A stretch of 64,000 nt of DNA from Phocaeicola sp. GTDB taxonomy: Bacteria; Bacteroidota; Bacteroidia; Bacteroidales; Bacteroidaceae. This document shows, piece by piece, positions 11,877-28,256 of this stretch. Numbering within the stretch: position 1 is the stretch's first letter; each line of letters begins with the position of its first letter. The stretch is taken from assembly GCA_051648565.1 (NCBI GenBank), contig JBOFFJ010000183.1, positions 30,993 to 94,992 of the forward strand. The letters run 5' to 3'. The notes beneath the pieces were generated by a model that had not been told where the DNA came from, ran no database searches, and saw only the letters and a list, made by a program, of their open reading frames with translations. Both the position numbers and the translations under genes were made by a program.

Positions 11877-12560
11877 ATGGAAGTTAAAAAATCTCCCCAA
11901 GCGGACCTCGAAGGAAAAAAGACCACGTGGACGCTTCTTGGTTTTATCTTCATCTTATCGATTTTGATTGTAGCCTTCGAATGGACTGAAAGCGACAAAC
12001 AAGTATCGGCAGATTCAGGTATCACCGAAGTCTTTTTTGAAGAAGAAATTGTGCCTATTACAGAGCAAGAAGAGCTGAAAACGCCTCCTCCACCCGAAGC
12101 ACCTCCCGTAGAAGAGGTACTTGAAATCGTAGAAAATGATGCGAAGGTAGAAGAGAGTACGATTCAAGCTTCTGAAGAGACTGGACAAGCTGTAGAGGTA
12201 AAACATATTCCTGTACAAGTAGAGGAAGAAGAGGTAGAAGAGCAACAAATCTTCCAAGTGGTAGAAGAGATGCCTGAATTCCCTGGTGGTATGGGCGAAT
12301 GTTTGAAGTTCTTGGCTAAAAACATGAAATACCCAACTATCTCTCAAGAAAATGGTGTACAAGGTCGTGTAATTGTACAATTTGTTGTAAACCAAGATGG
12401 TTCTATCGTTGACCCCGTGGTTGTACGTAGTGTAGACCCTTACTTGGATAGAGAAGCACTTCGTGTAATTGCTTTGATGCCTAAATGGAAACCTGGTAAA
12501 CAACGTGGTAAAGCTGTACGTGTAAAATATACCGTACCTGTAACGTTTAAACTACAGTAA
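11877..12560 (+). CDS. tonB: Energy transducer TonB
   Basis: N-terminal TM, Pro/Glu-rich linker, C-terminal TonB domain (MPEFPGG...YP...GVQGRV.VQFVV..DG...WKPGKQRGK.VRV). Confidence 0.93.
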   Translation: MEVKKSPQADLEGKKTTWTLLGFIFILSILIVAFEWTESDKQVSADSGITEVFFEEEIVPITEQEELKTPPPPEAPPVEEVLEIVENDAKVEESTIQASEETGQAVEVKHIPVQVEEEEVEEQQIFQVVEEMPEFPGGMGECLKFLAKNMKYPTISQENGVQGRVIVQFVVNQDGSIVDPVVVRSVDPYLDREALRVIALMPKWKPGKQRGKAVRVKYTVPVTFKLQ

Positions 12561-14693: not shown

Positions 14694-14781
14694 GGAGAGA
14701 TGCTCGAGTGGTTGAAGAGGCACGCCTGGAAAGCGTGTATACGCCAAAAGCGTATCGCGGGTTCGAATCCCGCTCTCTCCG
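14694..14781 (+). tRNA. tRNA-Ser (anticodon GGA)
   Basis: GGAGAGA/TCTCTCC acceptor stem, anticodon arm CACGC-CTGGAAA-GCGTG, long variable arm, GGGTTCGAATCCC T-arm; CCA not encoded. Confidence 0.96.
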
Positions 14782-14857: not shown

Positions 14858-15616
14858 ATGAAAAAGTTATTTGCAATTCTTGCAGTGATGGGAGTCCTTA
14901 CTTTAGGATCTGTACAACCAGCTATGGCACAAGAAGAGACCGCTCAAACAGAACAAGTGGTAGTAGAAGAGGGTGGTGGCCTTCACAAAGAGTTAAAAAC
15001 TAAGTATATTGAGGGGGGTGCTGACTTTATGTCATTGGTATCTATCGCATTGGTTTTAGGTTTGGCTTTCTGTATTGAACGTATCATCTATTTGAATCTT
15101 GCTGAAGTAAATACTAAAAAATTGATGGAAAGTATCGAAGCTTCTTTGGAAAAAGGAGATCTTGAAGGTGCTAAAACAGTATGTCGTAACACTCGTGGTC
15201 CTGTAGCTTCTATCTGTTACCAAGGTTTGATGCGTGTAGACGAAGGTTTGGACGTAGTAGAACGTTCTGTAGTATCTTACGGTGGTGTACAAGCTGGTTA
15301 CCTTGAAAAAGGATGTTCTTGGATCACACTATTTATCGCGATGGCTCCATCTTTGGGTTTCTTGGGTACTGTAATCGGTATGGTTATGGCATTTGATAAA
15401 ATCCAACAAGCGGGTGATATCTCTCCTACAGTAGTAGCAGGTGGTATGAAAGTTGCCTTGATTACAACAATCTTCGGTTTGGTTGTAGCTTTGATTCTTC
15501 AAGTATTCTACAACTATATTCTTTCTAAAATTGAAGCTATCACAAGCCAAATGGAAGACTCTTCTATTACATTGCTTGATATGGTTATGAAATACAACTT
15601 GAAATTCAAAAAATAG
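14858..15616 (+). CDS. exbB: MotA/TolQ/ExbB proton channel protein
   Basis: APSLGFLGTVIGM, GGMKVALITT..GL motifs; 3 TM segments. Confidence 0.92.
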   Translation: MKKLFAILAVMGVLTLGSVQPAMAQEETAQTEQVVVEEGGGLHKELKTKYIEGGADFMSLVSIALVLGLAFCIERIIYLNLAEVNTKKLMESIEASLEKGDLEGAKTVCRNTRGPVASICYQGLMRVDEGLDVVERSVVSYGGVQAGYLEKGCSWITLFIAMAPSLGFLGTVIGMVMAFDKIQQAGDISPTVVAGGMKVALITTIFGLVVALILQVFYNYILSKIEAITSQMEDSSITLLDMVMKYNLKFKK

Positions 15617-15623
15617 ATAGAAT

Positions 15624-16082
15624 ATGACAAAGTTATCATATAGAGTATCTTACTATGTATTATATGCTTGTATCGCACTTCTTTTTGTGGTATTTGGTGT
15701 CTTCTATACTGTAGGATATCATAATATTGTTGGAGAATATAATTTCCCAGAACATACTGAAACTCTTATGTATTTTATGTATGCTATGTTGGGTGTATGT
15801 GTTGTAGCAACCCTTTTAGGGGCTTTTGCACAGTTTCTTGCAGCATTAAGAGACAATCCTAAGGGTGCTATCAAATCATTAGTTGGTATTGTACTGTTTG
15901 GTGCTGTTCTACTAGTAGCCTATAACATGGGATCTACTGAGCCAATTATGACTGGTGATGGTCTTTTTACAGATGCAGTTGATTTAAAAGTTACTGACAT
16001 GATGATTTATGCTATCTACTTCTTGTTGATGGTAGCATCTGCTGGTACGCTTGTAAACCTATCAGGTATCTTTAAGAGATAA
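15624..16082 (+). CDS. Conserved 4-TM membrane protein of the Bacteroidetes exbB-exbD operon
   Basis: Four hydrophobic segments; co-oriented between exbB and exbD. Confidence 0.75.
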   Translation: MTKLSYRVSYYVLYACIALLFVVFGVFYTVGYHNIVGEYNFPEHTETLMYFMYAMLGVCVVATLLGAFAQFLAALRDNPKGAIKSLVGIVLFGAVLLVAYNMGSTEPIMTGDGLFTDAVDLKVTDMMIYAIYFLLMVASAGTLVNLSGIFKR

Positions 16083-16118
16083 TAGTATCACATTAGTAAA
16101 AAAAAAAAAGAGTAAATA

Positions 16119-16712
16119 ATGGCAGGAAAAAAAAGAGTGATGCCTGGAATCAATTCCAGCTCAACAGCCGATATTGCCTTTATGTTGCTTATTTTCTTCC
16201 TAACGACAACATCAATGGATACCGACCGCGGTTTGGCAAGACGTTTGCCACAACCACCGGAAAAGGAGCAAACTAAAGATGACAACATTATCGTGAAGGA
16301 ACGTAATGTACTCCAAGTTCGCCTTAACAAGGATAATATGATTATGTGCGGACAGGATTATGTGGAAATTAAGCAATTAAGAGATAAAGCAAAAGAGTTT
16401 ATTGCTAATCCGTATGATGATGAAAATCTTCCTGAAAAACATAGAAAAGAGATTATCTTGTTGGGAGATTGTATGATTACTGAGAAGCACGTTATTTCTG
16501 TACAAACAGACGTTGGTACAAGTTATGATGTTTACTTTCAGGCTCAGAATGAGTTGATTGCTGCATACAATGAGTTGAGAGACGAGTTGGCAAAATCAAA
16601 ATTTGGAACATCTTATATTTCATGTAACGAAGACCAACAGAAAGCGATACGTGATTTCTATCCACAAAAGATTTCTGAAGCTGAACCTAAAAAATATGGA
16701 GGCAAGAAGTAA
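16119..16712 (+). CDS. exbD: Biopolymer transporter ExbD/TolR family
   Basis: N-terminal TM with SSTADIAFMLLIFFL (conserved Asp). Confidence 0.9.
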   Translation: MAGKKRVMPGINSSSTADIAFMLLIFFLTTTSMDTDRGLARRLPQPPEKEQTKDDNIIVKERNVLQVRLNKDNMIMCGQDYVEIKQLRDKAKEFIANPYDDENLPEKHRKEIILLGDCMITEKHVISVQTDVGTSYDVYFQAQNELIAAYNELRDELAKSKFGTSYISCNEDQQKAIRDFYPQKISEAEPKKYGGKK

Positions 16713-17176
16713 TGGGAAAATTTAATAAAACGGGAAAACGTGGAATGCCCGAGTTGAATACCTCATCTCTACCTGACTTGATCTTCACCATGTTGTTCTT
16801 CTTTATGATTGTAACAACCATGCGTGAGGTAACCTTAAAGGTTCAATTTCAGGTACCACAAGGTACTGAGCTCGAAAAATTGGAAAAGAAATCATTGGTA
16901 ACATTTATCTATATTGGTAAGCCAATGCCTGAGTTCCAAAAGAAGATGGGTGCTGAAAGTCGTATTCAGTTAAACGATAAATTTGAAGATGTAGGTGCCG
17001 TTCAGGACTATATTACTCAAGAGCGTTTGAATATGAAAGAAGAGGATCAACCCTTTATGACAGTTTCGTTGAAGGTCGATAAAGAGACTAAAATGGGTGT
17101 TGTAACGGATGTGAAACAAGCACTTCGTCAAGCGTATGCTTTAAGAATTAACTACTCTGCTACAGATCGTCAGTAG
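16712..17176 (+). CDS. exbD: Biopolymer transporter ExbD/TolR family (second copy)
   Basis: TSSLPDLIFTMLFFFM TM motif; VSLKVDKETKMG.V.DV. Confidence 0.9.
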   Translation: MGKFNKTGKRGMPELNTSSLPDLIFTMLFFFMIVTTMREVTLKVQFQVPQGTELEKLEKKSLVTFIYIGKPMPEFQKKMGAESRIQLNDKFEDVGAVQDYITQERLNMKEEDQPFMTVSLKVDKETKMGVVTDVKQALRQAYALRINYSATDRQ

Positions 17177-17189
17177 TTTAATCCATACT

Positions 17190-17226
17190 AAAAAAGAGAT
17201 TGCAAAACTGCAATCTCTTTTTTTTT
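17190..17226. terminator. Bidirectional terminator between exbD and the convergent accessory locus
   Basis: AAAAAAGAGATTGCA-AAAC-TGCAATCTCTTTTTTTTT. Confidence 0.85.
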
Positions 17227-17345: not shown

Positions 17346-18230
17346 TTAATAGAAATCTGAGATGGCATTTGCAGCCATTTGTGTGTAGCTATGTGCTACG
17401 CCTGGTACTTCTCTCTTCTCCCAGTTAAAGTTGCCATACTCGGCTCCTAAAGTGGATGAATGCTCCCAAAAGTAAAGCCCTCTTTCGTATCGATGCAGCC
17501 CTTGTTTATCTGTCTCTGGCGAATGATTTAAGTTGGCATCATTGGGATTGGTATCATTCTGCCCCAGTTGTAGAATCAGCTGATTGCTCAGTGCCTTTTT
17601 AATCTTAGTCACATTGCTTGGCGAATCTTTGAGTCCGTAGGGGAACTCCACCTCCCAGTCAGGAACGGTATACCACCCTGCATTGGCGGAGATGGCTTGG
17701 CCAATGGGGGCATCGGGTTTGAATAGGAGGTAGCGATGTACAAACTGTGCACCTGCCGAATGTCCCCACATGTCATAACTGGTGGGCTGGATGGAGAGCT
17801 CTTGGCAGATGTATTGAAACAGCGGTTCAATGAGGGAGAAGGTCCACTCTGCTTCTGTTTTTTCTTTCTTATTCAGAAACATGCCTCCTTCGATGTAATC
17901 GGCAGAGGGATAAAACTTGGTGGAGAATTCGAGTGCGAAGAGTAGAATCCCTTTCTTGTCGGCTCCTGCTTTCCAAGCTTCGAGGTAGTCATCTGCATTT
18001 CTGTTTACTCCGGGAAAAAGGAATAGGATGGGCATCTTGCTTATATCTCCTTTGGGAATGTAGTAGTGTACCTGAACAGGTTTTTGTGCCAATGGCTGGT
18101 ATTTGTTGTAGGTTACTACTCCTGTGCCTTGCTGAAAGATTTCACTGTTGCCCTCTTCCATGGGATCACCTCCCCAGCAGCTTGTCAAGGCAAGCAGCAT
18201 GAGGAGGTGAGCTAATTGGGTTATTTTCAT
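17346..18230 (-). CDS. Lipoprotein alpha/beta-hydrolase (serine hydrolase; possibly poly(aspartate) hydrolase PahZ1-like)
   Basis: Lipobox LTSC, nucleophile elbow GHSAG(AQFVHR), ANAGWY, candidate Asp in GQNDT and His in GVAH; the PahZ1 resemblance is recalled, not computed. Confidence 0.75.
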   Translation of the reverse strand: MKITQLAHLLMLLALTSCWGGDPMEEGNSEIFQQGTGVVTYNKYQPLAQKPVQVHYYIPKGDISKMPILFLFPGVNRNADDYLEAWKAGADKKGILLFALEFSTKFYPSADYIEGGMFLNKKEKTEAEWTFSLIEPLFQYICQELSIQPTSYDMWGHSAGAQFVHRYLLFKPDAPIGQAISANAGWYTVPDWEVEFPYGLKDSPSNVTKIKKALSNQLILQLGQNDTNPNDANLNHSPETDKQGLHRYERGLYFWEHSSTLGAEYGNFNWEKREVPGVAHSYTQMAANAISDFY

Positions 18231-18239
18231 GATCTAGTG

Positions 18240-19451
18240 TTAGAATACAATGTGGGTGTTAATGCCTACCGAAAAGAGTTTATTCTCTTTGTCAAGGTCT
18301 GAGTAGTTTTCGTATTGTCCTACTAGTTGCAACTTAAGGCGGTTGTCAATGATGTATTTGGCTACACCAAAGCTTATTCCGTCAGTTTTCTTTATGAGAC
18401 TTTGCTTCTCTCTCCACTCTGGCGTCAGATGGCTGTATCTAACATCAATGGCCCAGTTCTTCGGGAAAAGGTATCCCGCTTGTGCACTGATGCCACTACC
18501 TAGTACCAAGTAATCGGCTATTTGGGTAGGTTGAAGTTTAGAGCTGGAGCTGGTTGTCAAGTGGAGATTGTCTAGGTTGCGGGCCCAAGCATCTACATAC
18601 TCTGTTAGGAAGGTAAATCCTTGGTACTTGAACATCAAGTTGAGTGACATCTTGATGTAGTCGGGAAATGCTTTCTTGCCAGTTGCATCGTACATCATAA
18701 AGTTGCCATGTCCCTCACCAATGGCATCACTTGCTCCACGGTTGTAGCTATACGATCCCCCAATAAGTAATTTAGGGGTTTTCTCGCGCGCAAAGTCGGT
18801 ATCGGTTAGGTGATTCCCTTCTGCGAAGAAGCCCATTGGATAAAAGGTGGCTTGCGCACTGTACTTTAATCCTCCTAAATCGAAATCGGTAGATGAGCTA
18901 CCAAAGGAGTTAATTCCATCTCCAGTAGTGACAGCTACCCCTAGGTCGAATCCTGTTTTTTGTAGAGGAAGGCGTGTCTCTACAAAGAGTCCTAGTTCGC
19001 GTCCTGTATTGTAAAAAGTACGGTTGGTTAAGCTTCTATTTCCCAGTGCTAAGGCTTGATCATAAAACATCATGGAGCGTGTACCCGAAAAGGATTGTTT
19101 TTGACCGACACTGATGGATAGGTTCTTTAATGGATTGTAGCCAATCCATGCATCTAGTAGTGGATACGAACGGGTGAAATCCATTTGAAGCTGAAACGTA
19201 AACTGTTCATCATTCAGTCCACCACTTAGGCCTAGATAGGCACGGTTAATGTCGAATCGGTATTCGGCATCTGTTCCTTTGAGTTCTGAATAGGCTCCTC
19301 CTGCCTGAACAAAGCCACCTACATTGAAATAGTGTTTCCCTTTGTTGAGTTCTACCGTTAATCCATTTCCTAATTGGAAGTTGGTGCGACTGTTTTGTGC
19401 CAACGCACCCATTGCAAATGTTGCAAATAGTATAGTTATAATTTTTTTCAT
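18240..19451 (-). CDS. Outer-membrane porin, OprO/OprP (phosphate-selective porin)-like
   Basis: Signal peptide, alternating beta-strand pattern, RFDINRAYL, SVGQKQSF, GRELG motifs, C-terminal Phe. Confidence 0.75.
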   Translation of the reverse strand: MKKIITILFATFAMGALAQNSRTNFQLGNGLTVELNKGKHYFNVGGFVQAGGAYSELKGTDAEYRFDINRAYLGLSGGLNDEQFTFQLQMDFTRSYPLLDAWIGYNPLKNLSISVGQKQSFSGTRSMMFYDQALALGNRSLTNRTFYNTGRELGLFVETRLPLQKTGFDLGVAVTTGDGINSFGSSSTDFDLGGLKYSAQATFYPMGFFAEGNHLTDTDFAREKTPKLLIGGSYSYNRGASDAIGEGHGNFMMYDATGKKAFPDYIKMSLNLMFKYQGFTFLTEYVDAWARNLDNLHLTTSSSSKLQPTQIADYLVLGSGISAQAGYLFPKNWAIDVRYSHLTPEWREKQSLIKKTDGISFGVAKYIIDNRLKLQLVGQYENYSDLDKENKLFSVGINTHIVF

Positions 19452-19479: not shown

Positions 19480-21009
19480 CTAATTCATGAAGCGGAAAAC
19501 AGGTAACTGCTCCCCTTCTTGGGCTTCAATGATTTTATAATTCACAAATCCATTTGATGATTCTGGTTCGAGCATCACTGCCACCAATCGACCTCTTTTT
19601 TGGTTGGTACGTACTATGTGTGTACCTATAGGTAGCTGAATGCTCTTTTTCTGAAGGGTGGTAGTTACCTTGATAGGTGTAAATGTAGCAAAGGATATTT
19701 GTTCCTCTTCTTGCTTAGTTACCTTGAAAACTTCTACCTCTACATCCATGGCTTCTGCTAGTTGGATTGTCTCGATGCCCATTTTATGAAGCGTTTCGAT
19801 GGCTCTTTTCTCTGTTGGGAGGATAAAGTATTTAGTTGGTAACTCTCTAGCCTGTTTAATTTCTGACTTCATGGCATTCGAAACCGTCAAATTCAGTGTA
19901 TCCAGCCTATTTTTTAGTTGGTTTACGAAGGGAAGAGGGTACTCTTCTATTCTCTCTGAACTAAACTCTATAGCCACTGGTTTTACCTCTTTACTAGCTG
20001 CATGGATGGCCTCTAGTAGCTGTTCGTTGTTGTTGTAGGTTGTATGTGCAAAGCTTTGGGCCAGCAAGTATACATTTTGAATTCTTCGATTGATGCCTGC
20101 TCTTCCCAGTCCGATGCCTCGTGTCTCTGTTAAAATGGTAAATGCATTGTTGAGTGCAAGTGAGTTGGTTGTTGATCTGGGTGAAGTACCTCCTAGGTTC
20201 ATTACCACACCACTGCTTGTCTTCTTAGGAGTGTAGTAGGTGTGTGAAGAGTGGTTATTTTCCTTCAATACTTGCTTTACATTGGCTATGAATAGTGATT
20301 CTACAGAAGCTCTAATGGGGCTTGCTACGTTGGGGTTGCCAGAGGTTAAAAACATCACGTCCCACGGTAAGGAGAGTACCTCACTCGACAAGAGTGAATA
20401 GGCACTCTTAAGGGGTTGGTATTCGTGAAAATCGATGCAAACATGTGGGTCGGCTTGATTTACCACCTTGCGTAGTGCTACTGCCTCGGGTGTTTCTAAG
20501 CGCACTTGGTCACGGTTTAAGTCAATCCCATTGGCTGTTTGACGTGTCATACGTTGAGCACCATCGGCATTCACCATGGGAAGTATGTAGAAATCAATCC
20601 TCTCTAAAAGAGTTTTCATGGTGGGGTCTGAAGTCACTTTTTCAATAAAATGCAACAACCCTTCGGTACCCGCTGGTTCGTCACCGTGTATACGTGCCAT
20701 GTAAAGCACCCTCATTTTGGTAGTTGCTGCTTGTTTGTTAGATAGTTTCACCAAGAGAATTTCTCTCTCTCTTTGTGTTTTTCCTACCTCCTCTACCTCC
20801 ATAATCTCCTGGTTAGCCTTTTGTAGCTCAAACAGATAGCTCTTCATCTCTTTGAAGGAGGTATATCCTGTTGATTTTGAACCAATGGGACTTTTTGTTT
20901 CCCACTGGGTGGGATTGGGAAAGAATTTCTGTTGAACCTTTTTTAAATCTTGCGCAGCGAGTGTGCTAAATAGTATAGAGGCCAGAAATAGATATAGTTT
21001 TTTGTTCAT
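19480..21009 (-). CDS. Secreted M14 zinc carboxypeptidase
   Basis: Signal peptide; HGDEP (HxxE), NADG, ANGIDLNRD, DFHE, ETRG: complete M14 zinc/catalytic set. Confidence 0.88.
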   Translation of the reverse strand: MNKKLYLFLASILFSTLAAQDLKKVQQKFFPNPTQWETKSPIGSKSTGYTSFKEMKSYLFELQKANQEIMEVEEVGKTQREREILLVKLSNKQAATTKMRVLYMARIHGDEPAGTEGLLHFIEKVTSDPTMKTLLERIDFYILPMVNADGAQRMTRQTANGIDLNRDQVRLETPEAVALRKVVNQADPHVCIDFHEYQPLKSAYSLLSSEVLSLPWDVMFLTSGNPNVASPIRASVESLFIANVKQVLKENNHSSHTYYTPKKTSSGVVMNLGGTSPRSTTNSLALNNAFTILTETRGIGLGRAGINRRIQNVYLLAQSFAHTTYNNNEQLLEAIHAASKEVKPVAIEFSSERIEEYPLPFVNQLKNRLDTLNLTVSNAMKSEIKQARELPTKYFILPTEKRAIETLHKMGIETIQLAEAMDVEVEVFKVTKQEEEQISFATFTPIKVTTTLQKKSIQLPIGTHIVRTNQKRGRLVAVMLEPESSNGFVNYKIIEAQEGEQLPVFRFMN

Positions 21010-21021
21010 AATCTTGTTCGT

Positions 21022-22422
21022 TTAAAATGCGAGTTGGAATAATAAGGTGAAACTTTTCTCCCATCCACTTACTGACTCCTCATTGGGGTTGCGAATCGTT
21101 CCATTGGTCTTGGCTAGCCCAAAGTTGGCTTGTACTTTGGCGGCATACGATTTACTTAAATATTTGGTCACGCAGAAATCCATGTAATCGCTTCGGTTGA
21201 AGAAAAGATCGTTGTTCATGAATGAATATTCATCAGGCATAAGGTGGGTGTAGCGCACATCGAACGAGAAGAAGTTGCGCATCAGATAACCTGCCTGGAT
21301 GTTGTAACCCGAACCAATCATCATTCTATTTTTGATGTAGTTCTCTATGTTATTCTCTCCATTAATCGTAAAGTCTGACGATACAGTTCCGTCTGTACGT
21401 ACGCGGTAAGCAATAGATGAAGGAACATGTGCCCAGGTCTTTACATACTCTCCCAACATGCTAAATCCTTGCCACTTAAACATAAAGTCTAGTGTAAGCT
21501 TACCCATATCGGGTAGTGCACTCCTTTTATCGGCATCTTGGTAAAGAATAGCTCCTCCTTCGCGTCCGCCTCTACGGTCACTTACTCCATCGTTGTAGCT
21601 GTACGAAGCTCCTATAACCAATCTGGGTTTAATCTCGAAAGCTAGATCAGATTGGCGTGTTTCGCCAGCTAGGCGGAAGAGGCCAAAGGGAAGGTAGTTT
21701 AGGCGTGCACCATATTTTAATCCACCGTATCTCTTCTCGGCACTGATGGGCCCATCGCCATCGGTTATTGAAACCGAGGGGCGCAGGTAGCTAGAGGTAC
21801 CCACTTTGTAAGTGCCTGAAGCAACCACACCAATTTCTCGGATGGTACCAAAGAGTGAGCTTAACTTACTTCGGTCTGTAAACTGCAGGGTGGCAGAGTT
21901 CATCTGCAACTCGCGGTTGTCGGTAGGGGTTGAACGTTGTCCAAAAGAGATGGAGAGTTTGTTATTTCCCCAAGGGTGATAGGCTACAAAAGCATCGGAT
22001 AGCATCGCTCCAACCCCTTCGGCATCGGTTTCACTTCCCTTTACCATATCTAGTCCCAATCGGTACCTTATTTTGTTGTTAAAGGCTTTCCCATTCAGTC
22101 TAAGGCGGGCACGTCTTACCCTAAAGCGTGAATAGAGCTCATCGCCTTCAGGGTACATTTGGGTTTGAAAGGTGGTTTGAATATAGCCACTCAGGTTCAT
22201 TCCATAGGAATCGGTAGTGGAGAGAAGTGAGATACCATCTCCCAATGTATAGCTATCTAATTGAAATCTCTTTTTCATTTGGTAGAGATCCTCTGCATAG
22301 TCTCCATCTTGTAGGTCATCGAAATCAATCGACACATCTTCATCCGTCTGTGCAAATAGAGGAACGCCCATATTTCCTAGCAGGAAGAGTGTGATAAATA
22401 GAACTAGTTTGTTTATTTTCAT
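21022..22422 (-). CDS. Outer-membrane porin, OprO/OprP-like (paralogue of 18240-19451)
   Basis: Signal peptide from MKINKL; RFRVRRARL, SFGQ, IREIG, GGLKYG motifs; C-terminal Phe. Confidence 0.75.
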   Translation of the reverse strand: MKINKLVLFITLFLLGNMGVPLFAQTDEDVSIDFDDLQDGDYAEDLYQMKKRFQLDSYTLGDGISLLSTTDSYGMNLSGYIQTTFQTQMYPEGDELYSRFRVRRARLRLNGKAFNNKIRYRLGLDMVKGSETDAEGVGAMLSDAFVAYHPWGNNKLSISFGQRSTPTDNRELQMNSATLQFTDRSKLSSLFGTIREIGVVASGTYKVGTSSYLRPSVSITDGDGPISAEKRYGGLKYGARLNYLPFGLFRLAGETRQSDLAFEIKPRLVIGASYSYNDGVSDRRGGREGGAILYQDADKRSALPDMGKLTLDFMFKWQGFSMLGEYVKTWAHVPSSIAYRVRTDGTVSSDFTINGENNIENYIKNRMMIGSGYNIQAGYLMRNFFSFDVRYTHLMPDEYSFMNNDLFFNRSDYMDFCVTKYLSKSYAAKVQANFGLAKTNGTIRNPNEESVSGWEKSFTLLFQLAF

Positions 22423-22441
22423 GTTGAATGATTTAAATGGA

Positions 22442-23587
22442 TTATACTTCAAAATTACCTTTGCGAACCATCTTCTGCTCTTTCATAAACTCTATGCCTT
22501 GAGAGATGACATGCGTGAGTCTGAATGATTGATCGAAGAAGCAGAAGTCGGCATCATAGCCCACCTTTATCTCACCTTTATTTTTCAATTTCATATTCTT
22601 GGCTGCATTCTCCGTAACCAGCTTAAAGGCATCTTTGGGATGCATTCCTCCTTCGGTAATGAGTTTGATGGTCTGCTCTAAGTTTAGATGCAAGGGTGCC
22701 AACTTGTAGGTATCTACACCTGTTATTGGGTCAATGCGTCTTACACCTGCATTGCCATCACTGCTGAAAGAGATTCTACTGATGTCGACTCCTTGTTCCA
22801 ATGCCATCAGTACCGCTTTATAGGGCTCTGTAAATTTGGTTCCTCCAGTAGATATGTCAATCATGCCACCTAACTTGGCAAACTCAATTGCTTGATTAAA
22901 TAGCGCTTCGGTTCGGATGGTATGGGTGGGTGAAATGTAATGAACAAGTGTGGGATACTTCTTGGCTATATCGAGTAATAGCGACATGCCATCGGGCAAT
23001 CCTCCTAGGTGAACATGCATCACTCCTCCTTTGGCCGATGTAAAGCCACCCAAACGTACTTGGTTAATAATGCGTAGCAATTCCTCTTCGGTGGGGTGTG
23101 AGCTTCGGTCGTCACAGATGGCAATCTTACACCCGATAACTGGATCGATGTAGATTAAATCTTCGGTTACCGAGTTGGTGAGCGTCGGCGTAGGAAGACC
23201 ATAAAAGCCTGTTAGCATGTAGGCAGAAAGTCCATTCATTCTTAATGACATGGTTTTAGCATAGAGCTGGGGTAGTTTCTTTACAAATCCATCTGTACCT
23301 AGTAGCCCTACTACGGTAGTGGTGCCACAGGCTACTAATGCTTGTACTTGCACCTCGGGTGCTAATGAGCTAAAACCTGTTTGGCCACCGCCGCCAATCA
23401 CATGTACGTGAATGTCAATCAATCCTGGAGTAACCCAGGCCCCTGCTGCATCAATTACTTCTACCTCTAAGTTGCCCGTATCGATGCAACTATCAATGGC
23501 AGCAATCTTATTGTTGTGAATAAGAATCTGTTTTAAATCGGCCTCTACACTGTGATAAAGGCGTGCGTTTGTTATAAGTTTAAACAT
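22442..23587 (-). CDS. iadA: Beta-aspartyl peptidase / isoaspartyl dipeptidase, IadA-like amidohydrolase
   Basis: PGLIDIHVHVIGGGG, GTTTVVGLLGTDG, MLTGFY, IGCKIAI.D.RS, HVHLG, PTH..R, SSDGNA align with E. coli IadA metal-ligand motifs. Confidence 0.88.
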   Translation of the reverse strand: MFKLITNARLYHSVEADLKQILIHNNKIAAIDSCIDTGNLEVEVIDAAGAWVTPGLIDIHVHVIGGGGQTGFSSLAPEVQVQALVACGTTTVVGLLGTDGFVKKLPQLYAKTMSLRMNGLSAYMLTGFYGLPTPTLTNSVTEDLIYIDPVIGCKIAICDDRSSHPTEEELLRIINQVRLGGFTSAKGGVMHVHLGGLPDGMSLLLDIAKKYPTLVHYISPTHTIRTEALFNQAIEFAKLGGMIDISTGGTKFTEPYKAVLMALEQGVDISRISFSSDGNAGVRRIDPITGVDTYKLAPLHLNLEQTIKLITEGGMHPKDAFKLVTENAAKNMKLKNKGEIKVGYDADFCFFDQSFRLTHVISQGIEFMKEQKMVRKGNFEV

Positions 23588-23593
23588 GGTGCA

Positions 23594-24973
23594 TTAGATG
23601 AATAAGTAGTTGTAGAATAACATAAAAATCAACGCTCCTCCGAGGGGGATGAAATTACGCTTGGCTAAATCAAATGGAGAGACACCTGCTACTTCGGCAA
23701 TGGCAATAATAACGCCTGCAATGGGGGAGGTAGCTCTACCCATACTGGCCGAGAGTTGCATGGGTAGTATCATGTCTGCCGATGGTATGCCCAATTTTTG
23801 TGCAATCGAAGGTACAAGTGGTCCGAATGAGAAGAAAGAGGCATTACCGCTTCCCATGAGCATGGCAGCAAAGAAAATAAGAATGGTAATGGCTATTCCA
23901 ATGGCCACTCCCGAGAAGCCTACGTGTGTGGCACCCTCTACCAATGCATTGATTAGCCCCAAGTTAATAAGCCCTTTTGAGAAGACCTCTGCGCAAACAA
24001 TGAGTGTAACTACATCGGTGAATACTTTTCCCATCCCATTCCAAAAAGCCTTAATACTGTTGTAGGTATCTTTAAAGCTCTTGGTGCGACATAAATCAAA
24101 CAGCATAGCAATAATGAGCGATACCACCATGGCAGTGGTTGTATCTAACTCTATAGCTGGATGAAAGAGTTGCAAATACTTGGAGAATAGAATCAACATT
24201 AAGAGTGGCAGAACCGGTAATAGGGCAAAAATAAGGGGTACTTCCAGTTTCATTTCAGTGACTTGGATAGGCTTTTCGGCCACTATTTTACCCGCTTCTA
24301 GATCTTTCTTATCAAAGTATCGATTGGTGAAGTAATAGAGTATCATTAGCAATATAGTCATTGGGATAGCCATAGGTAGTTGGTGCTCAATGAAATACAT
24401 TACATTGTTCATCTCTAATAGTTCCGATGCTTTTGCTGTATTGGCTGAGCCAGGTCCCATATCGAAAACGGTACAAGCCGAGATAACCGAAACGGCTGTC
24501 AATCTACTTACTCCTAGATTAACCAGTACGGGTAGGATAGAGGCAACCAATAGCAGCCCTAATCCCGCTGCACTGGGTGTACAGATAAAGAGTAGCTGTC
24601 CTATGGGAATGATTGAAATAGCTGCCATGTAAGGGTATTTACGGAAGAGTGATAACGGTTGCATTGATACATAGACCAACGCATCACTAGCCTTAATTTG
24701 TTTCATGTAGGCCACATAGCCTCCGATAGACATAATCATTAAACCTACTCTCACTAAGTTGGTAGAGAAGGTCTCTACTACAATTTTGAATAGGTCAAAG
24801 AAGGCCCCACCTGTAGGTTTAACTGGTTCAAGCGATTGCCCAAGTAGCCCTGCAATGGCTAGCATGGCAATACCAGTGACCAAAAGTACCACCTGTGGAT
24901 TGTATTTTTTATATAGCCAATAAGCCGTGAGTATGATAAACTGAACGGCTATTATTACTCCTAGTAGTGTCAT
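23594..24973 (-). CDS. dcuC: C4-dicarboxylate transporter, DcuC family
   Basis: ~12 TM; IMSIGGYVAYM, MGSGNA.FFSF.PL.P.IA, LPMQ..S.MGR..SPIAGV, VSPF...KR. Confidence 0.87.
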   Translation of the reverse strand: MTLLGVIIAVQFIILTAYWLYKKYNPQVVLLVTGIAMLAIAGLLGQSLEPVKPTGGAFFDLFKIVVETFSTNLVRVGLMIMSIGGYVAYMKQIKASDALVYVSMQPLSLFRKYPYMAAISIIPIGQLLFICTPSAAGLGLLLVASILPVLVNLGVSRLTAVSVISACTVFDMGPGSANTAKASELLEMNNVMYFIEHQLPMAIPMTILLMILYYFTNRYFDKKDLEAGKIVAEKPIQVTEMKLEVPLIFALLPVLPLLMLILFSKYLQLFHPAIELDTTTAMVVSLIIAMLFDLCRTKSFKDTYNSIKAFWNGMGKVFTDVVTLIVCAEVFSKGLINLGLINALVEGATHVGFSGVAIGIAITILIFFAAMLMGSGNASFFSFGPLVPSIAQKLGIPSADMILPMQLSASMGRATSPIAGVIIAIAEVAGVSPFDLAKRNFIPLGGALIFMLFYNYLFI

Positions 24974-24998: not shown

Positions 24999-26456
24999 CT
25001 ATTCTCCTCTAACTAATCCTGCCTTGTCACTACTTCCACTTCCTAGTTGGTCGTAAAGAGCAGCAGGTACCGTATAGGTTACTTCAACACCATCAACTTT
25101 ATTCTTACCCATGTTGAGTGTTTTTAAATTGGCATAACTTGTTGGCCGAATAAAATCGGCTGGTACTATTTCATTGGCGCTTAAATTAATAGTAACTAGG
25201 AGACTATTTTTGCTTAGATCTACCGCTTTTAATCGATCGAGTGAACTTGATGCTGATCCTTGAATATCTAAATTGATCAATTTAGTATTTTTCGATAGAT
25301 CCAATACGCTAAGGCCTGCCGTACGTACAATAAGTGATTTTAGCTCGGTTAAGTTCTCAAGTGGAAGAGCCTCTGTAAAGGCGTTAGAGGTAGCTATAAT
25401 TTCAGTCACTCCCGAAAAGAGTTGTAGCCCATCTGCATTGGCTATTTTTACAGCTGCAGTAGCTATGCCTGCTGTTTCTAGTTTAGTAATAAAAGCGCTC
25501 GCTTTACTGATGTTTAGAATACCTGTATAAGTGGCTGCAATCTCGGTGTCGATATAGATTTTATCCTCTTTAAGAATCACAACTCCTTCTGGCAATTTCA
25601 AAGTAGCATCTTCCACATTATTCATTAAGTAGTACAGATAGTCTGCAAAGGCTTGGTCTTTGACTAGGTACTCCTTGTCCGAAGGTGTTTCGCCATTGTT
25701 ATCTTCGGCTGGTTCAACTCCCTTTTTGGTTATTAATTGGTCGTATAGATCTTGTGGAATGGGGAAGTTAGCACCTGTATTTCCTGATAAATCTAGATCG
25801 ACTAAGTTCGCATACAAAGTAGGCAGCTTTAATCCCTCTTTCGTAATGAGGTGATTGATTAGATAGATGTGTTCGGCTTTTGTATTTCCAGCTAAGTCAA
25901 TGGCTGTAAGTCGTTGGTTCTCGGTTGCGCTTGAGCTAGCACTGTATCTTAATCGCTTAATCGAGGTAGGAAGGATTAGTTCATTGACCAAGTTGGCATT
26001 CATTTCAAGCGTGTCTAACTGGGTAAGTTCACTTAAATCCAACTTCCCTTCGACTGAATTTGAGGTTAGCTTTAAGTTGCTGCATTGCGTGAAATATTGA
26101 ATTCCATCTAAGTTACTAATTTTTACAGCTGCCGAGGCTACTCCTGCTGCTTCGAGTGCTTCAATGCGCTTTGCATCTTTTACTAGGTATAGTGCTTTTA
26201 CCTCTTTTGCTTTAGTTGTATCGAGTAGAAAATTATCATCTTGTTTGATACAGATGCCATAGGGTAATAGATTTTCGCTTGTTGCTGCTAACGTAGTGTT
26301 ATAAATTAAGTATTCGGCAAATGCTACGTCACTGAGTGGGTATAAGGTTGTTTCATCTGGTTCTTCTACTGATGATTGAACATCTTCTGTAGAGCAACTG
26401 AAGAAAAAGGAGATAAACCCGATTAGGAGCATGAAGTGGTGTGTAATTCTTCTCAT
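24999..26456 (-). CDS. Leucine-rich-repeat surface lipoprotein made of two homologous ~210-aa modules
   Basis: Lipobox FFFSC; LxxLxLxxN repeats; internal duplication DVAFAEYLIY.../DQAFADYLYY... Confidence 0.8.
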   Translation of the reverse strand: MRRITHHFMLLIGFISFFFSCSTEDVQSSVEEPDETTLYPLSDVAFAEYLIYNTTLAATSENLLPYGICIKQDDNFLLDTTKAKEVKALYLVKDAKRIEALEAAGVASAAVKISNLDGIQYFTQCSNLKLTSNSVEGKLDLSELTQLDTLEMNANLVNELILPTSIKRLRYSASSSATENQRLTAIDLAGNTKAEHIYLINHLITKEGLKLPTLYANLVDLDLSGNTGANFPIPQDLYDQLITKKGVEPAEDNNGETPSDKEYLVKDQAFADYLYYLMNNVEDATLKLPEGVVILKEDKIYIDTEIAATYTGILNISKASAFITKLETAGIATAAVKIANADGLQLFSGVTEIIATSNAFTEALPLENLTELKSLIVRTAGLSVLDLSKNTKLINLDIQGSASSSLDRLKAVDLSKNSLLVTINLSANEIVPADFIRPTSYANLKTLNMGKNKVDGVEVTYTVPAALYDQLGSGSSDKAGLVRGE

Positions 26457-26540
26457 CTTTACTTTTTATTAATTGAATGATTTTTTTTGTTATAGCTGTC
26501 AAAGTAAAGGCTAAACCATAAATAAAGAGGTGAATATAGC

Positions 26541-26557
26541 CATTAACGAAACATTAA
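26541..26557 (-). promoter_or_regulatory. Candidate activator site: TTAATG direct repeat at 11-bp period upstream of the LRR-dcuC-iadA operon
   Basis: + strand CATTAA at 26541 and 26552; a -7-like TTACTTTG at 26500-26507 on the - strand. Confidence 0.4.
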
Positions 26558-26777
26558 TACCAAACATAATTGTCTCCTATTTGTTTGTTAACTTCTATGT
26601 AATAAACCATTTATGGCTAAAATGTATTCCTGCTGGGGTAATTAGGCAGATTCTATTGAGGTGTTGTGAAAGGGTATGAAAGGATGGCCAACCTCTAGGT
26701 TAATGAGGTAGGCAGTGGGTAGCATAGGGAGAAAAAAGAGGTAAAGAGAGTAGAAGAAATGGGTTTGAGAGAGGAGG

Positions 26778-28256
26778 TTAATCGGCCATTTTTAGGAGGT
26801 CGGCAAAAGAGAGAGTAAAGGTTTCTCCATAGACCTGTTTATACTCTTGGCAGAATTTATCATAGAAGGTTTTAGCAGCAGAGTGTCTTCCTGATTTTAC
26901 GTAAGCTCTGCATTTTAAAGAGAGAGCTTGTTCATTGATACTTTCAAATTTAAGCATTACATCGGCCATTCCAATGTAGATATCGGTTGTATGATTCTCA
27001 TTCATGGTGGCCGAATAGGCTAGAAACTTATCAAAGAGTTCATTCGAGATGTTACCCTTTAATTCATCTAGCCATTCGTATGGCTGCTCAGGAAGTATAT
27101 TTCCTTGCGCAGTCAATGAACAGAGTAGTTCGATTTCCGATCTGGATCGTAATCCTACTGCTCCTAAGGTTGTACGATACTGTAAATAGTCTATAAATGC
27201 GTCCTTCGTTTGAATGCTCCAATAGCTGTCATCGTTCGTGATTTCAAAGTCGCCCACCTCTGTTAACAGGTTGCGTAGTTTTCCTAGATTTACTGCCCTG
27301 TTATTACGCGCACTGGCTACTGTTTTATCCAGCCATAGATAAGATTTCATCTTTTCGGCCGAAATCCCTTTTTTATCCGAATGGAGAATCAGAAGAGCCA
27401 GTAACTCTTTTAGAATGGGAGAGAATCGTTTGGTTATATCTTCGCCTTCTTTGTTATAGATGCGCATTCCACCAAAGAGGTAGATAGCCGATTTAGTAGG
27501 AAGTAGGGGCTTGCTTAGGTAGATAGGAGAGCTTAAAGATACCTCATTCAAGTTACTGCTTCCCTCTTTTTTTAGTTTCCGATGTCGGTAGTACATCCAT
27601 GAGAAAATCAGGATGTCAAGTACAATAATTACTATGTACCAGATAATTGAATTTCCTTTTCGTGAATCTTGGACAGCCTCTACGCTGAAATTTTGAATGG
27701 TTGGACCATCTCTCTCTTGGATGGAGTGATTAGAAGGGGTTGTATTTAGATGAATGGCAAATTTATACCCGTAATCAACCGAAAGTCCAGTCTGCCCTAT
27801 CTCAATGGTATTATTCTCTCCTACGCAGAGTTTTACCAGATCTTTGCGCATGTCGAATTCAATTAAAATGGGAATGCTAGTTGCCTCAAAAAAAGAGGAA
27901 CCTATGGGTATACTCTTTTTGGTTAGTGTCATGTTCTTACCAAAAAGAAGGTTTAAACTGTTTAATTTAGGCTCTCCATCTAGAATGAAATAGATTGTCT
28001 CTTTTTGTGAGGTAGTAGCTGATAACAAGAAGAAGCTAAAGTCGGTCGACTCTTTTCCTCTGGCTAGATTAAACCGGATGGTTACTTTTTCATCAAAATA
28101 AGAGAATTCATTCTCCGATAGAAAGGTTTCGGGATCAATCTCGATTAATCTCCTTGTTGACTCATTTCCGAGTAAATTGGTCGGTAAAATGGAGCAGATG
28201 AGCCATACAAGAAGAAGTCTACACATGAATGAACTGTTTCTAACGTTGATATGCAT
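26778..28256 (-). CDS. Membrane-anchored one-component transcriptional regulator (periplasmic sensor - TM - SARP/BTAD-like DNA-binding region)
   Basis: Signal-like N-terminus, single TM IIWYIVIIVLDILIFSWMYY, then IYLFGGMRIYNKEG.DIT..FSP.LKELL...W.DK...SARNNR.VN..KLR typical of Bacteroidetes SARP-like activators. Confidence 0.78.
   Translation of the reverse strand: MHINVRNSSFMCRLLLVWLICSILPTNLLGNESTRRLIEIDPETFLSENEFSYFDEKVTIRFNLARGKESTDFSFFLLSATTSQKETIYFILDGEPKLNSLNLLFGKNMTLTKKSIPIGSSFFEATSIPILIEFDMRKDLVKLCVGENNTIEIGQTGLSVDYGYKFAIHLNTTPSNHSIQERDGPTIQNFSVEAVQDSRKGNSIIWYIVIIVLDILIFSWMYYRHRKLKKEGSSNLNEVSLSSPIYLSKPLLPTKSAIYLFGGMRIYNKEGEDITKRFSPILKELLALLILHSDKKGISAEKMKSYLWLDKTVASARNNRAVNLGKLRNLLTEVGDFEITNDDSYWSIQTKDAFIDYLQYRTTLGAVGLRSRSEIELLCSLTAQGNILPEQPYEWLDELKGNISNELFDKFLAYSATMNENHTTDIYIGMADVMLKFESINEQALSLKCRAYVKSGRHSAAKTFYDKFCQEYKQVYGETFTLSFADLLKMAD

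Follow-up and report, generated by a model that had tools for sequence, protein, structure and literature searches.

The enzymes closest to the protein described here are the PahZ1 enzymes, which are of interest for the recycling of poly(aspartic acid), a biodegradable polymer that can replace polyacrylate. Six of them have been tested so far and all six degrade tPAA. The PahZ1 of Pedobacter sp. KP-2 is active on beta-amide bonds and inactive on alpha-amide bonds; its substrate must have 3 Asp units or more, so that dimers of beta-Asp-Asp are left uncut. The published PahZ1 homologs have TM values > 0.90 to the PahZ1 crystal structures. A 2026 survey of the family discusses neither the natural substrate nor the gene context, and our literature search found no paper tying PahZ1 to IadA (isoaspartyl dipeptidase) or to cyanophycin, or naming the protein of Bacteroides xylanisolvens mentioned below.

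The gene considered is localized at 17346..18230, on the minus strand of the window (i.e., the whole 64-kb stretch of DNA that was analysed). It begins with ATG, encodes 294 amino acids and is the last gene of a seven-gene operon. The product is the lipoprotein precursor of a serine hydrolase of the PahZ1 family. Its N-terminus, MKITQLAHLLMLLALTSC, contains a signal peptide (18177..18230, minus strand) with the lipobox L-T-S-C, read from the sequence, in which Cys18 is the lipidation site and is followed by WGGDPMEEG. Cys18 does not vary among 20 homologs. A large part of these have acidic runs right behind the lipidated Cys (e.g., CWSDDDKD, CFKDDES) and these runs, in the Bacteroidales orthologs, resemble the lipoprotein export signal of Bacteroidetes. 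The motifs listed by a previous sequence-only reading of this DNA are all present in the translation, i.e., FPGVNRNADDY, EFSTKFYP, WTFSLIEPLF, GHSAGAQFVHR, ANAGWYTVP, FPYGL, LGQNDTNP, QGLHRYERG and PGVAHS, and the Ser-Asp-His triad which it had deduced from them is found as well.

The same reading had proposed a resemblance to PahZ1, which is borne out by the sequence, the predicted fold and the conserved catalytic residues. A phmmer search against PDB matches the protein to 6VE6 (PahZ1 of Sphingomonas sp. KT-1) with E 4.4e-51 and to 9O7U (PahZ1 of Pedobacter sp. KP-2) with E 2.2e-49. The AF2 model (pLDDT 91.8), when compared by Foldseek with the same two structures, gives a target-normalised TM of 0.95, a rmsd of 1.2-1.3 A and E values of 9e-33 and 3e-31; the best match outside the PahZ1 family reaches a TM of 0.53-0.58 only. 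The identity with the PahZ1 of KT-1 and KP-2 is 33-37% (37% and 36%, respectively). These two enzymes share 41% identity with each other, i.e., about the same distance, and in a rough tree they stand on either side of the clade containing the protein of the window. From the sequence comparisons, its closest characterised relatives are thus the PahZ1 enzymes and not plain esterases; it is the latter that the sequence-only reading had named as speaking against its proposal. No Pfam family is matched at E <= 0.01, Esterase_PHB included. At E <= 1e-30 the family comprises ~520 clusters (50% identity), the members of which are mostly annotated «hypothetical protein», and the nearest genome match has 61% identity. 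The only sequencing run found bears the label «freshwater metagenome».

The alignment with 6VE6 gives the residues of the active site, all encoded on the minus strand: (i) Ser158 (17757..17759, codon checked), the nucleophile in GHSAG (residues 156-160), corresponds to S157 of KT-1; (ii) Asp226 (17553..17555), the acid of the triad, to D225; (iii) His280 (17391..17393), the base, to H280; (iv) Arg247 (17490..17492) to the PahZ1-specific Arg that positions the substrate, i.e., R246 in KT-1 and R215 in KP-2. The four positions are invariant in 86 family domains. Mutation of S157, D225, H280 or R246 in KT-1 abolishes the hydrolysis of tPAA (PMC13017698). Asp231 (17538..17540, minus strand) is located where each of the six characterised PahZ1 enzymes has a basic residue (His230/231 in KT-1, Arg239 in KP-2), the basic residues being proposed to position the polyanion (PMC13017698). 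With D231 and A232 occupying the place of KT-1 His230/His231, this basic feature of the characterised enzymes is not found in the protein. Moreover, with a pI of 5.2 and a net charge of about -10, the mature protein is acidic, while the characterised PahZ1s are neutral to basic (pI about 7.3-9.3). The basic substrate groove to be looked for in the model according to the sequence-only reading is therefore, as judged from the residues, only partly kept. Since Asp231 replaces a basic residue proposed to position the polyanion, it cannot be taken for granted that the substrate is purely polyanionic. Position 231 is variable across the family (D, S, H, R, A); Asp231 was also considered as a mark of an operon-linked subfamily, and this was rejected since the residue varies with no clear tie to the context.

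The seven genes are all on the minus strand, separated by gaps of 6-28 bp, in the order LRR lipoprotein, DcuC-type carrier, IadA, porin, M14 carboxypeptidase, porin and PahZ1-like hydrolase. The first gene (24999..26456) encodes a lipoprotein with LRR-like repeats, having a FFSC lipobox followed by the acidic STEDVQSSVEEPDE and a weak match to LRR_4; we infer that it is a surface binding protein. It is kept at the first position in Bacteroidales and is replaced by a LTD/Calx-beta lipoprotein in Flavobacteriales. The carrier (23594..24973) belongs to the DcuC family (PF03606, E 2e-69; NF037994, 393 bits). The IadA-type isoaspartyl (beta-aspartyl) dipeptidase (22442..23587) scores 320 bits with TIGR01975, for a cutoff of 331, and matches solved isoaspartyl dipeptidases over its full length (E 2e-72); it has no signal peptide and is thus probably cytoplasmic. 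Porin A (21022..22452) is of the phosphate-selective porin O/P family (PF07396, E 2.7e-7) and begins either with TTG at 22452 or with ATG at 22422, the gene call in locus L001 taking the ATG (466 aa). The M14 zinc carboxypeptidase (19480..21009, 509 aa; PF00246, E 6e-25) has an N-terminal signal peptide and is thus probably periplasmic. The HxxE, NR and H motifs of this enzyme are shared without exception by 23 orthologs. When the specificity pocket was examined for an acidic or a basic C-terminal preference, the alignment to solved M14 enzymes covered the N-terminal half only, even with a profile of these 23 sequences. It must be added that Arg278 of this enzyme, nearly invariant, stands 17 residues ahead of the putative catalytic Glu295. 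Porin B (18240..19451, 403 aa, signal peptide, outer membrane) is a paralog of porin A and shares a BLAST cluster with a Porin_O_P gene; the window copy has no Pfam match while its ortholog in another locus (L004) has a weak match to Porin_O_P. The operon contains no adjacent pair of SusC-like and SusD-like genes. According to the sequence-only reading, an isoaspartyl peptidase and a dicarboxylate carrier stood beside the hydrolase gene: they do belong to the same operon, but not as immediate neighbours, both being three genes upstream.

The 321-bp region upstream of the operon (26457..26777, minus strand) contains an element of the Bacteroidetes type, TAnnTTTG, 104 nt before the first ATG, which is a pattern match only. 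A sigma-70 promoter scan gave matches at the level of shuffled sequences, this model being one that does not fit Bacteroidetes promoters. Next to this region, a membrane-anchored protein of 492 aa (26778..28256, minus strand), with no Pfam family, is a candidate regulator of the locus; its gene accompanies the operon in 9 loci, in which it may stand on either side and in either orientation. At the other end, a perfect 15-bp hairpin between an A-run and a T-run (17190..17223, no strand assigned) would act as a bidirectional terminator between the operon and the convergent ExbBD genes. Metatranscriptome reads over a related Bacteroides operon form patchy fragments of low depth, one of them across the junction between porin and PahZ1-like gene, for which a carry-over of DNA is possible. 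Two other «RNA» runs consist of long, genome-like contigs of even depth and are uninformative on expression.

The order of the seven genes is kept, with differing flanks, in Bacteroidales relatives with an identity of 45-61%, one of them being Bacteroides xylanisolvens XB1A, and rearranged versions of the operon are found in Flavobacteriales and in Chitinophagales-like genomes. Within 10 kb of the PahZ1-like gene, IadA is present in 28, DcuC in 28, M14 in 33 and the porin in 31 of 80 loci, these being the closest relatives and thus a sample neither unbiased nor phylogenetically independent. The linkage is observed in several distinct arrangements, in all of which DcuC adjoins IadA, and in several orders of Bacteroidota. 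The idea that IadA and the carrier point to the natural role is strengthened by this recurrence. On the contrary, 30 of the 80 loci have none of the linked genes, which argues against the main reading given below. In other lineages the PahZ1-like gene adjoins a cyanophycinase, SusC/D pairs, or DASS or DctA carriers. SusC/SusD pairs stand in for the porins in some of them (L028, L056, L057, L085). The other neighbours are all related to Asp or dicarboxylates, i.e., cyanophycinase (150 bits, above cutoff), a S46 Dpp7-like peptidase, and DASS and DctA-like carriers. A M20 peptidase lying beside PahZ1-like genes of Sphingomonadales was considered as PahZ2 and rejected: it matches carboxypeptidases of the Sso-CP2 type and no chain named PahZ2.

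Taken together, we consider it fairly probable that the protein is an endo-hydrolase of the PahZ1 family acting on beta-carboxyl amides of Asp in Asp-rich oligo- or polypeptides, as an outward-facing lipoprotein responsible for the initial step in a utilization operon of seven genes. The analysis itself establishes the homology, the fold and the conservation of both the catalytic residues and the gene linkage. As for which bond is cut, where in the cell the protein is located, how the steps follow each other and what passes through porins and carrier, we infer the following scheme: (i) the LRR-type surface lipoprotein and the PahZ1-like hydrolase would bind and fragment the polymer; (ii) the short acidic products would enter through the two porins of the OprO/P family; (iii) they would be trimmed by the periplasmic M14 carboxypeptidase; (iv) the DcuC-type carrier, always paired with IadA in related loci, would import beta-Asp dipeptides or Asp; (v) beta-Asp-X dipeptides, which PahZ1-type enzymes would not cut, would be split by the cytoplasmic IadA. 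The presence of IadA in the operon fits this scheme because the beta-Asp-Asp dimers left by the KP-2 enzyme are substrates of isoaspartyl dipeptidases. The candidates for the natural polymer are beta-linked (isomerised) Asp-rich peptides, cyanophycin-type material and an undescribed poly-aspartate. Against this reading, we know of no abundant natural beta-linked poly-aspartate.

The location at the surface is probable, since a T9SS sorting domain is carried by the Polaribacter and Winogradskyella orthologs that occupy the same slot of the operon. This domain, like the SusC/SusD pairs that stand in for the porins in some lineages, speaks for the uptake of an external substrate. An enzyme of the same chemistry anchored on the inner face of the outer membrane, cutting oligomers once the porins have let them in and thus not being a surface depolymerase, appears rather unlikely. 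The PahZ1 of KT-1 and KP-2 are indeed described as periplasmic, the porin genes stand ahead of the PahZ1-like gene in the operon, and the residues behind Cys18 (WGGDPMEE) are weakly acidic when compared with relatives such as CWSDDDKD, so that a lipoprotein facing the periplasm may be considered; but the sorting domain of the Flavobacteriales orthologs, C-terminal, means transport across the outer membrane, acidic runs follow the lipidated Cys in many Bacteroidales orthologs, and a substrate of polymer size could not pass a porin. A different chemistry, namely that of an esterase or depolymerase of polyesters such as poly(beta-L-malate), which is the ester counterpart of beta-poly-Asp, or PHB-like material, is very improbable. 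Alpha/beta hydrolases of the PHB-depolymerase-like kind are related to the family, and LpqC, a putative PHB depolymerase, ranks third among the structures matched (E 2e-35); one database source labels a homolog carboxylesterase; DcuC, DASS and DctA-like carriers transport C4-dicarboxylates and could thus import malate. Nevertheless, the NCBIfam match to PHA depolymerase (NF050058) is weak, 24.4 bits for a cutoff of 150, and Pfam Esterase_PHB is not matched, for which reasons a plain esterase or PHB depolymerase was rejected as main reading; moreover, the conserved partners are peptidases (IadA, M14, S51, S46, M20), the hydrolysis of poly-Asp requires an Arg that is invariant in the family, and every tested family member (6/6) hydrolyses the amide polymer.

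The nature of the polymer is another matter, and cyanophycin or its fragments must be weighed as the natural substrate, with the PahZ1-like protein as an alternative or accessory cyanophycin hydrolase in a utilization locus free of cyanophycinase. It would either remove Arg from the beta-carboxyl of backbone Asp or solubilise the polypeptide of the granules, M14 and IadA finishing the work. The only beta-amide bond of cyanophycin is in its chemistry the bond cut by PahZ1, i.e., the beta-carbonyl of L-Asp is linked to an amino acid whose alpha-carboxylate is free, and beta-Asp-Arg is cut by known enzymes of the M14 clan (CphZ). Arg side chains would suit the acidic surface and Asp231, and clusters for the scavenging of cyanophycin are known to be built around IadA and a transporter. 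The carriers of the PahZ1-like gene include many freshwater and marine Bacteroidota and Verrucomicrobia associated with blooms. In two loci of termite-gut Bacteroidales (L028, L032), a cyanophycinase (TIGR02069, 150 bits, cutoff 126.6) is directly upstream of the PahZ1-like gene, in a SusC/SusD locus which also has homologs of the DcuC and M14 of the operon; in two loci of Opitutales (L075, L079), two cyanophycinase-like genes (106-110 bits) are interleaved with three PahZ1-like genes. However, these four are the only ones of the 80 loci with such a gene, and a tblastn search of the 64-kb window with two cyanophycinase(-like) proteins gave no significant match. No arginine carrier or catabolic gene is recurrent, the recurrent carriers being all of types for dicarboxylates or acidic amino acids; the family of the porins is anion-selective; the subsites of the KP-2 enzyme need three Asp units; and the literature searched reports no PahZ1 enzyme acting on cyanophycin. 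Cyanophycin as the substrate is thus regarded as less likely than not by a clear distance. A broader proposal is made with similar reserve: rather than degrading a plastic substitute by chance, PahZ1-type hydrolases may serve as depolymerases in an «aspartyl-polymer utilization locus», hitherto undescribed but widespread in Bacteroidota and having relatives in Verrucomicrobia, with uptake by porins or SusC/D, the true substrate of which would be either cyanophycin by a new route (cleavage of isopeptide bonds or side chains, instead of or alongside the S51 cyanophycinase) or a natural beta-linked poly-aspartate as yet unrecognised as a biopolymer.

The conserved operon offers a first testable clue to the natural role of PahZ1 enzymes and a concrete physiological hypothesis, and its partners are ready-made enzymes for complete depolymerisation. 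Several hosts are culturable, among them Bacteroides xylanisolvens XB1A, Butyricimonas muris, Polaribacter, Flavobacterium and Winogradskyella. A further subject on which the operon bears is how Bacteroidota of gut, freshwater and marine habitats recover nitrogen, be it from cyanophycin or from peptides that are Asp-rich or isomerised.

The comparison with known systems can be summarized as follows. With the PahZ1 of KT-1 (6VE6) and KP-2 (9O7U), the protein shares the alpha/beta-hydrolase fold, the GHSAG elbow, the Ser/Asp/His triad, the QG.HR..R motif with its essential Arg and a similar size. It differs from them in being a lipoprotein, whereas these are soluble and periplasmic, in its pI (5.2 vs. 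about 7.3-9.3), in having Asp231 instead of His-His or Arg, and in its origin, a Bacteroidales of a freshwater metagenome rather than aerobes of river water; the context of an IadA/M14/porin/DcuC operon is unmentioned in the PahZ1 papers examined. LpqC of Bordetella parapertussis (3D0K) belongs to the same family (E 2e-35), with the same fold (TM 0.85) and with GHSAG and QG.HRY.R kept, but has a lower identity to the protein (29%) and is an entry of structural genomics; its name, «putative poly(3-hydroxybutyrate) depolymerase», is in our opinion an annotation rather than a tested function. In the PahZ1/PahZ2 system of Sphingomonas sp. KT-1, as in the scheme above, an endo-acting PahZ1 releases oligomers which are finished by an exo-acting metallopeptidase; on the contrary, the M14 and IadA of the window matched no PDB chain named PahZ2, and the genes of the window are gathered in one operon with components for uptake. 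The cyanophycin utilization locus comprises CphE/CphB, IadA or IaaA and a transporter. It thus combines, for scavenging, an extracellular hydrolase of an Asp polymer with IadA and a carrier, just as IadA and DcuC are clustered with the depolymerase in the operon of the window, and a few lineages have the PahZ1-like gene next to a cyanophycinase. The window has no S51 cyanophycinase, its hydrolase being an unrelated alpha/beta hydrolase, and its operon adds two porins, a M14 carboxypeptidase and a probable surface lipoprotein. Finally, the locus resembles the polysaccharide/protein utilization loci of Bacteroidota, of the SusC/SusD type, by what would be a surface lipoprotein, a surface or secreted depolymerase, import through the outer membrane, periplasmic trimming, an inner-membrane carrier, a cytoplasmic finishing enzyme and a dedicated regulator, and is distinguished from them by the pair of OprO/P-family porins that replaces SusC/SusD and by a substrate that would be a polymer of peptide type.

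The open reading frame at 17346-18230 (- strand) has an ATG start and codes for a protein of 294 aa, and all the motifs quoted in the sequence-only reading are found in its translation. Its N-terminus, MKITQLAHLLMLLALTSC, is a signal peptide with the lipobox of that reading at its end, and an alignment of 20 homologs shows no variation at Cys18. The Pfam search gave no family at E <= 0.01 and the NCBIfam search gave PHA depolymerase alone, far below threshold (24 bits vs. a cutoff of 150). Among all PDB chains, the top match is PahZ1 of Sphingomonas sp. KT-1 (6VE6, E 4.4e-51), then PahZ1 of Pedobacter sp. KP-2 (9O7U, E 2.2e-49) and LpqC (3D0K, E 2.3e-35); no further chain is significant. The AlphaFold model (20 homologs as input) has a mean pLDDT of 91.8. 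Both PahZ1 structures superpose on it with a target-normalised TM of 0.95 and an rmsd of 1.2-1.3 Å, the next family, siderophore esterases, reaching TM 0.53-0.58. In the gap-free alignment to 6VE6, S158, D226, R247 and H280 correspond to S157, D225, R246 and H280 of KT-1 (S126, D194, R215 and H249 of KP-2), and KT-1 loses poly-Asp degradation upon S157A, D225A, H280A or R246A/E/K substitution (PMC13017698). R77, S158, R166, D226, Q243, G244, R247, R250 and H280 are invariant in 86/86 family domains, which come from 80 genomes and the two crystal sequences. The proposed resemblance to PahZ1, with a full Ser-Asp-His triad, is thus confirmed by PDB search, fold superposition and aligned catalytic residues.

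Over the same columns, the hydrolase is 37% identical to KT-1 and 36% to KP-2, which share 41%. A neighbour-joining tree, which is a rough one, groups KP-2 as the sister of the Bacteroidota clade that contains the hydrolase and places KT-1 inside an alphaproteobacterial clade. Thermal poly-Asp is degraded by all six family members assayed to date, which makes beta-aspartyl amidase chemistry likely for the present protein. The family, mostly unnamed in databases, comprises 519 clusters (50% identity) at E <= 1e-30 and 2,238 at E <= 1e-3. Multi-domain architecture or tandem duplication is seen in many relatives (520-1640 aa; loci L014, L022, L024, L074, L075), and the homologs P0142 and P0143 (about 570 aa) have two matched stretches. 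In some loci, two to four copies are adjacent to each other; in Polaribacter sp. BAL334, about 18 kb separate the two copies (L025, L051).

The hydrolase gene is the last of seven tightly packed genes on the (-) strand, from 26456 down to 17346, with intergenic gaps of, in order, 25, 6, 19, 12, 28 and 9 bp. The first encodes an LRR-like lipoprotein (24999-26456; weak LRR_4 match), followed by a DcuC-family carrier (23594-24973; PF03606, E 2e-69; NF037994, 393 bits) and the isoaspartyl dipeptidase IadA (22442-23587; TIGR01975, 320 bits; solved isoaspartyl dipeptidases over the full length, E 2e-72). Then come porin A of the Porin_O_P family (21022-22452; PF07396, E 2.7e-7), an M14 carboxypeptidase with a signal peptide (19480-21009; PF00246, E 6e-25), whose specificity pocket is not readable from sequence by comparison with solved M14 enzymes, and porin B (18240-19451), a paralog sharing a BLAST cluster with porin A. 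The start of porin A is ambiguous: TTG at 22452 gives an 11-bp overlap with the end of iadA, ATG at 22422 (public gene call) a 19-bp gap. By eye, the LRR-like lipoprotein looks like one long unit in two copies (…YLIYNT…AAGVASAAVKISNLDGIQYF… and …YLYYLM…TAGIATAAVKIANADGLQLF…), with LRR-like repeats after each.

The 321-bp region 5' of the first gene carries a TAnnTTTG element, and a perfect hairpin with an A-run and a T-run (17190-17223) separates the hydrolase gene from convergent ExbB/ExbD genes. The latter (14858-17176, +) encode MotA/ExbB, a small membrane protein and two ExbD proteins; before them lie a TonB-like gene (11877-12560, +), three unrelated genes and a tRNA (14694-14781). Upstream of the operon, a membrane-anchored 492-aa protein (26778-28256, -) without Pfam match has an N-terminal signal or membrane segment and a mid-protein transmembrane stretch. 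In 9 Bacteroidales loci it accompanies the operon, on either strand and on the upstream or the downstream side, so it may be a regulator or sensor of the locus. A 432-aa secreted protein with a HEFGHSFGGLGDEY motif (28907-30205, -) looks by eye like an M64 (IgA-peptidase-like) zinc protease and is followed by a GNAT-like gene, also read by eye (28364-28903). No cyanophycinase is present in the 64-kb window.

Exact-sequence look-ups placed homologs at 59%, 49% and 45% identity in the same seven genes, in identical order and between unrelated flanks. The 45% homolog falls in a cluster of 644 members together with WP_015531669.1 ("hypothetical protein") of Bacteroides xylanisolvens XB1A. The analysis covered the best 80 loci among 561 relatives that a scan with one genome per species gave: within 10 kb of the PahZ1-like gene, IadA occurs in 28/80, DcuC in 28/80, M14 in 33/80 and a porin in 31/80. 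Of these best 80 loci, 50 have one or more Asp-directed peptidases or dicarboxylate-type carriers, and the linked genes are absent altogether in 30. As the 80 loci are the closest relatives and phylogenetically non-independent, the counts show that linkage is strong in this part of the family and give no family-wide rate. The isoaspartyl peptidase and dicarboxylate carrier taken earlier as a clue to the natural role are IadA and DcuC of the operon itself, and their linkage recurs across lineages.

The arrangement varies with lineage. Bacteroidales have a collinear operon with the LRR lipoprotein in front; Polaribacter and Winogradskyella keep the operon, with a non-homologous LTD/Calx-beta lipoprotein in first position. 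In Flavobacterium and Flaviramulus a MocR / PahZ1-like / DASS unit runs divergently from the module, and rumen Bacteroidales show the order M14 / SusC / SusD / DcuC / IadA / PahZ1-like / DASS. Chitinophagales-like freshwater MAGs have the PahZ1-like gene and a T9SS-tailed protein opposite DctA-like / porin / M14 / porin / IadA / DcuC. In five of these MAG loci (L039, L043, L047, L054, L058), a protein of about 425 aa, annotated for its T9SS C-terminal sorting domain alone, always follows the PahZ1-like gene. The names attached to L039, L040, L043 and L047 (Chitinophaga pinensis, Vulcanococcus limneticus, Flavobacterium psychrophilum) look placeholder or mislabelled for Bacteroidota MAGs. In marine Flavobacteriales MAGs (L018-L021, L023), the PahZ1-like gene is separated from the porin/M14 module by genes for a DUF4886 protein and an LTD lipoprotein (e.g., L020 2761-3543). 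Metatranscriptome cover of a related Bacteroides operon consists of low, patchy contigs, one of which spans the porin/PahZ1-like junction, and DNA carry-over is a possible source of them. The nearest homologs of the hydrolase place the present sequence in Bacteroidales, and the single run containing it is labelled freshwater metagenome.

PahZ1 of KP-2 cuts beta-amide and not alpha-amide bonds, requires three occupied Asp subsites and leaves beta-Asp-Asp dimers that it cannot cut, i.e., the kind of substrate taken by isoaspartyl dipeptidase; thus the operon reads as a complete route. A polymer would be bound at the surface and endo-cleaved, small acidic products would enter via the porins (an anion-selective family), M14 would trim C-termini in the periplasm, the carrier, always paired with IadA, would import the products, and IadA would split beta-Asp-X dipeptides in the cytoplasm. 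We infer each functional step of this route from homology, fold, residue conservation and gene linkage.

As candidate feed polymer, acidic, beta-linked Asp-rich peptides are favoured by the dicarboxylate type of the carriers, by the porin family and by what is known of the KP-2 subsites. Cyanophycin-type material is a serious rival. The termite-gut Bacteroidales loci L028 and L032 have a cyanophycinase gene (150 bits vs. a cutoff of 126.6) immediately upstream of the PahZ1-like one, in a SusC/SusD locus that also has a Dpp7-like S46 peptidase and homologs of DcuC and M14 of the operon. In the Opitutales loci L075 and L079, three PahZ1-like genes are interleaved with two cyanophycinase-like ones that score below the cutoff (106-110 bits). 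These recurrent neighbours, the known role of IadA in cyanophycin use, the acidic enzyme (pI 5.2, its surface taken as acidic) and the bloom-associated hosts all speak for cyanophycin-type material.

Other contexts occur in the family. The nearest KT-1 relatives (Sphingomonadales) have a convergent M20 carboxypeptidase-like gene after the hydrolase. A PGA_cap (CapA-like) gene adjoins the PahZ1-like gene in Actinobacteria, where an ABC exporter joins the pair, and in some Verrucomicrobia, which echoes the PahZ1-CapA fusion reported for Brevifollis (PMC13017698) and may point to a poly-amino-acid polymer of capsule type. Such neighbours are seen at L088 8676-9797, L086, L075 13745-14896 and L053.

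In the literature on PahZ1 with IadA, cyanophycin or operon, the coverage of which is incomplete, no description of this operon was found. The 2026 survey of the family (PMC13017698) does not contain "isoaspartyl", "cyanophycin", "operon" or "natural substrate", and neither it nor the KP-2 biochemistry paper discusses gene context. The niche, long-open question of the natural role of PahZ1 becomes experimentally addressable in culturable hosts.

In Polaribacter and Winogradskyella, the ortholog that occupies this operon slot has a T9SS C-terminal sorting domain (E 9e-11 and 4e-14) in place of the lipobox architecture, which argues that the enzyme works beyond the outer membrane. Acidic runs directly follow the lipidated Cys in many Bacteroidales orthologs (CWSDDDKD, CFKDDES, CGDDDD), and we take these runs to resemble the Bacteroidetes lipoprotein export signal; the motif of the present protein, CWGGDPMEE, is weaker. 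The predicted lipoprotein is probably exposed on the cell surface, whereas PahZ1 of KT-1 and KP-2 are described as periplasmic (PMC13017698).

The charge differs as well. The mature protein is acidic (pI 5.2; 23 K+R vs. 33 D+E), whereas the crystallised parts of KT-1 and KP-2 are neutral to basic (pI 7.3 and 9.2) and the mean pI of PahZ1 enzymes is 7.7 +/- 1.5 (PMC13017698). Asp231 and Ala232 align with the His230/His231 pair of KT-1 and Arg239 of KP-2, proposed to help in positioning the polyanion (PMC13017698). Position 231 is variable among the 86 domains (D, S, H, R, A), and its charge does not track gene context in them. Judged from sequence, the basic groove expected earlier is kept in part: the core Arg and Lys residues (R77, R166, K201, R247, R250) remain, the outer basic residues and the net charge do not. 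The hydrolase is a further member of the PahZ1 family, unusual in its anchor and its charge.
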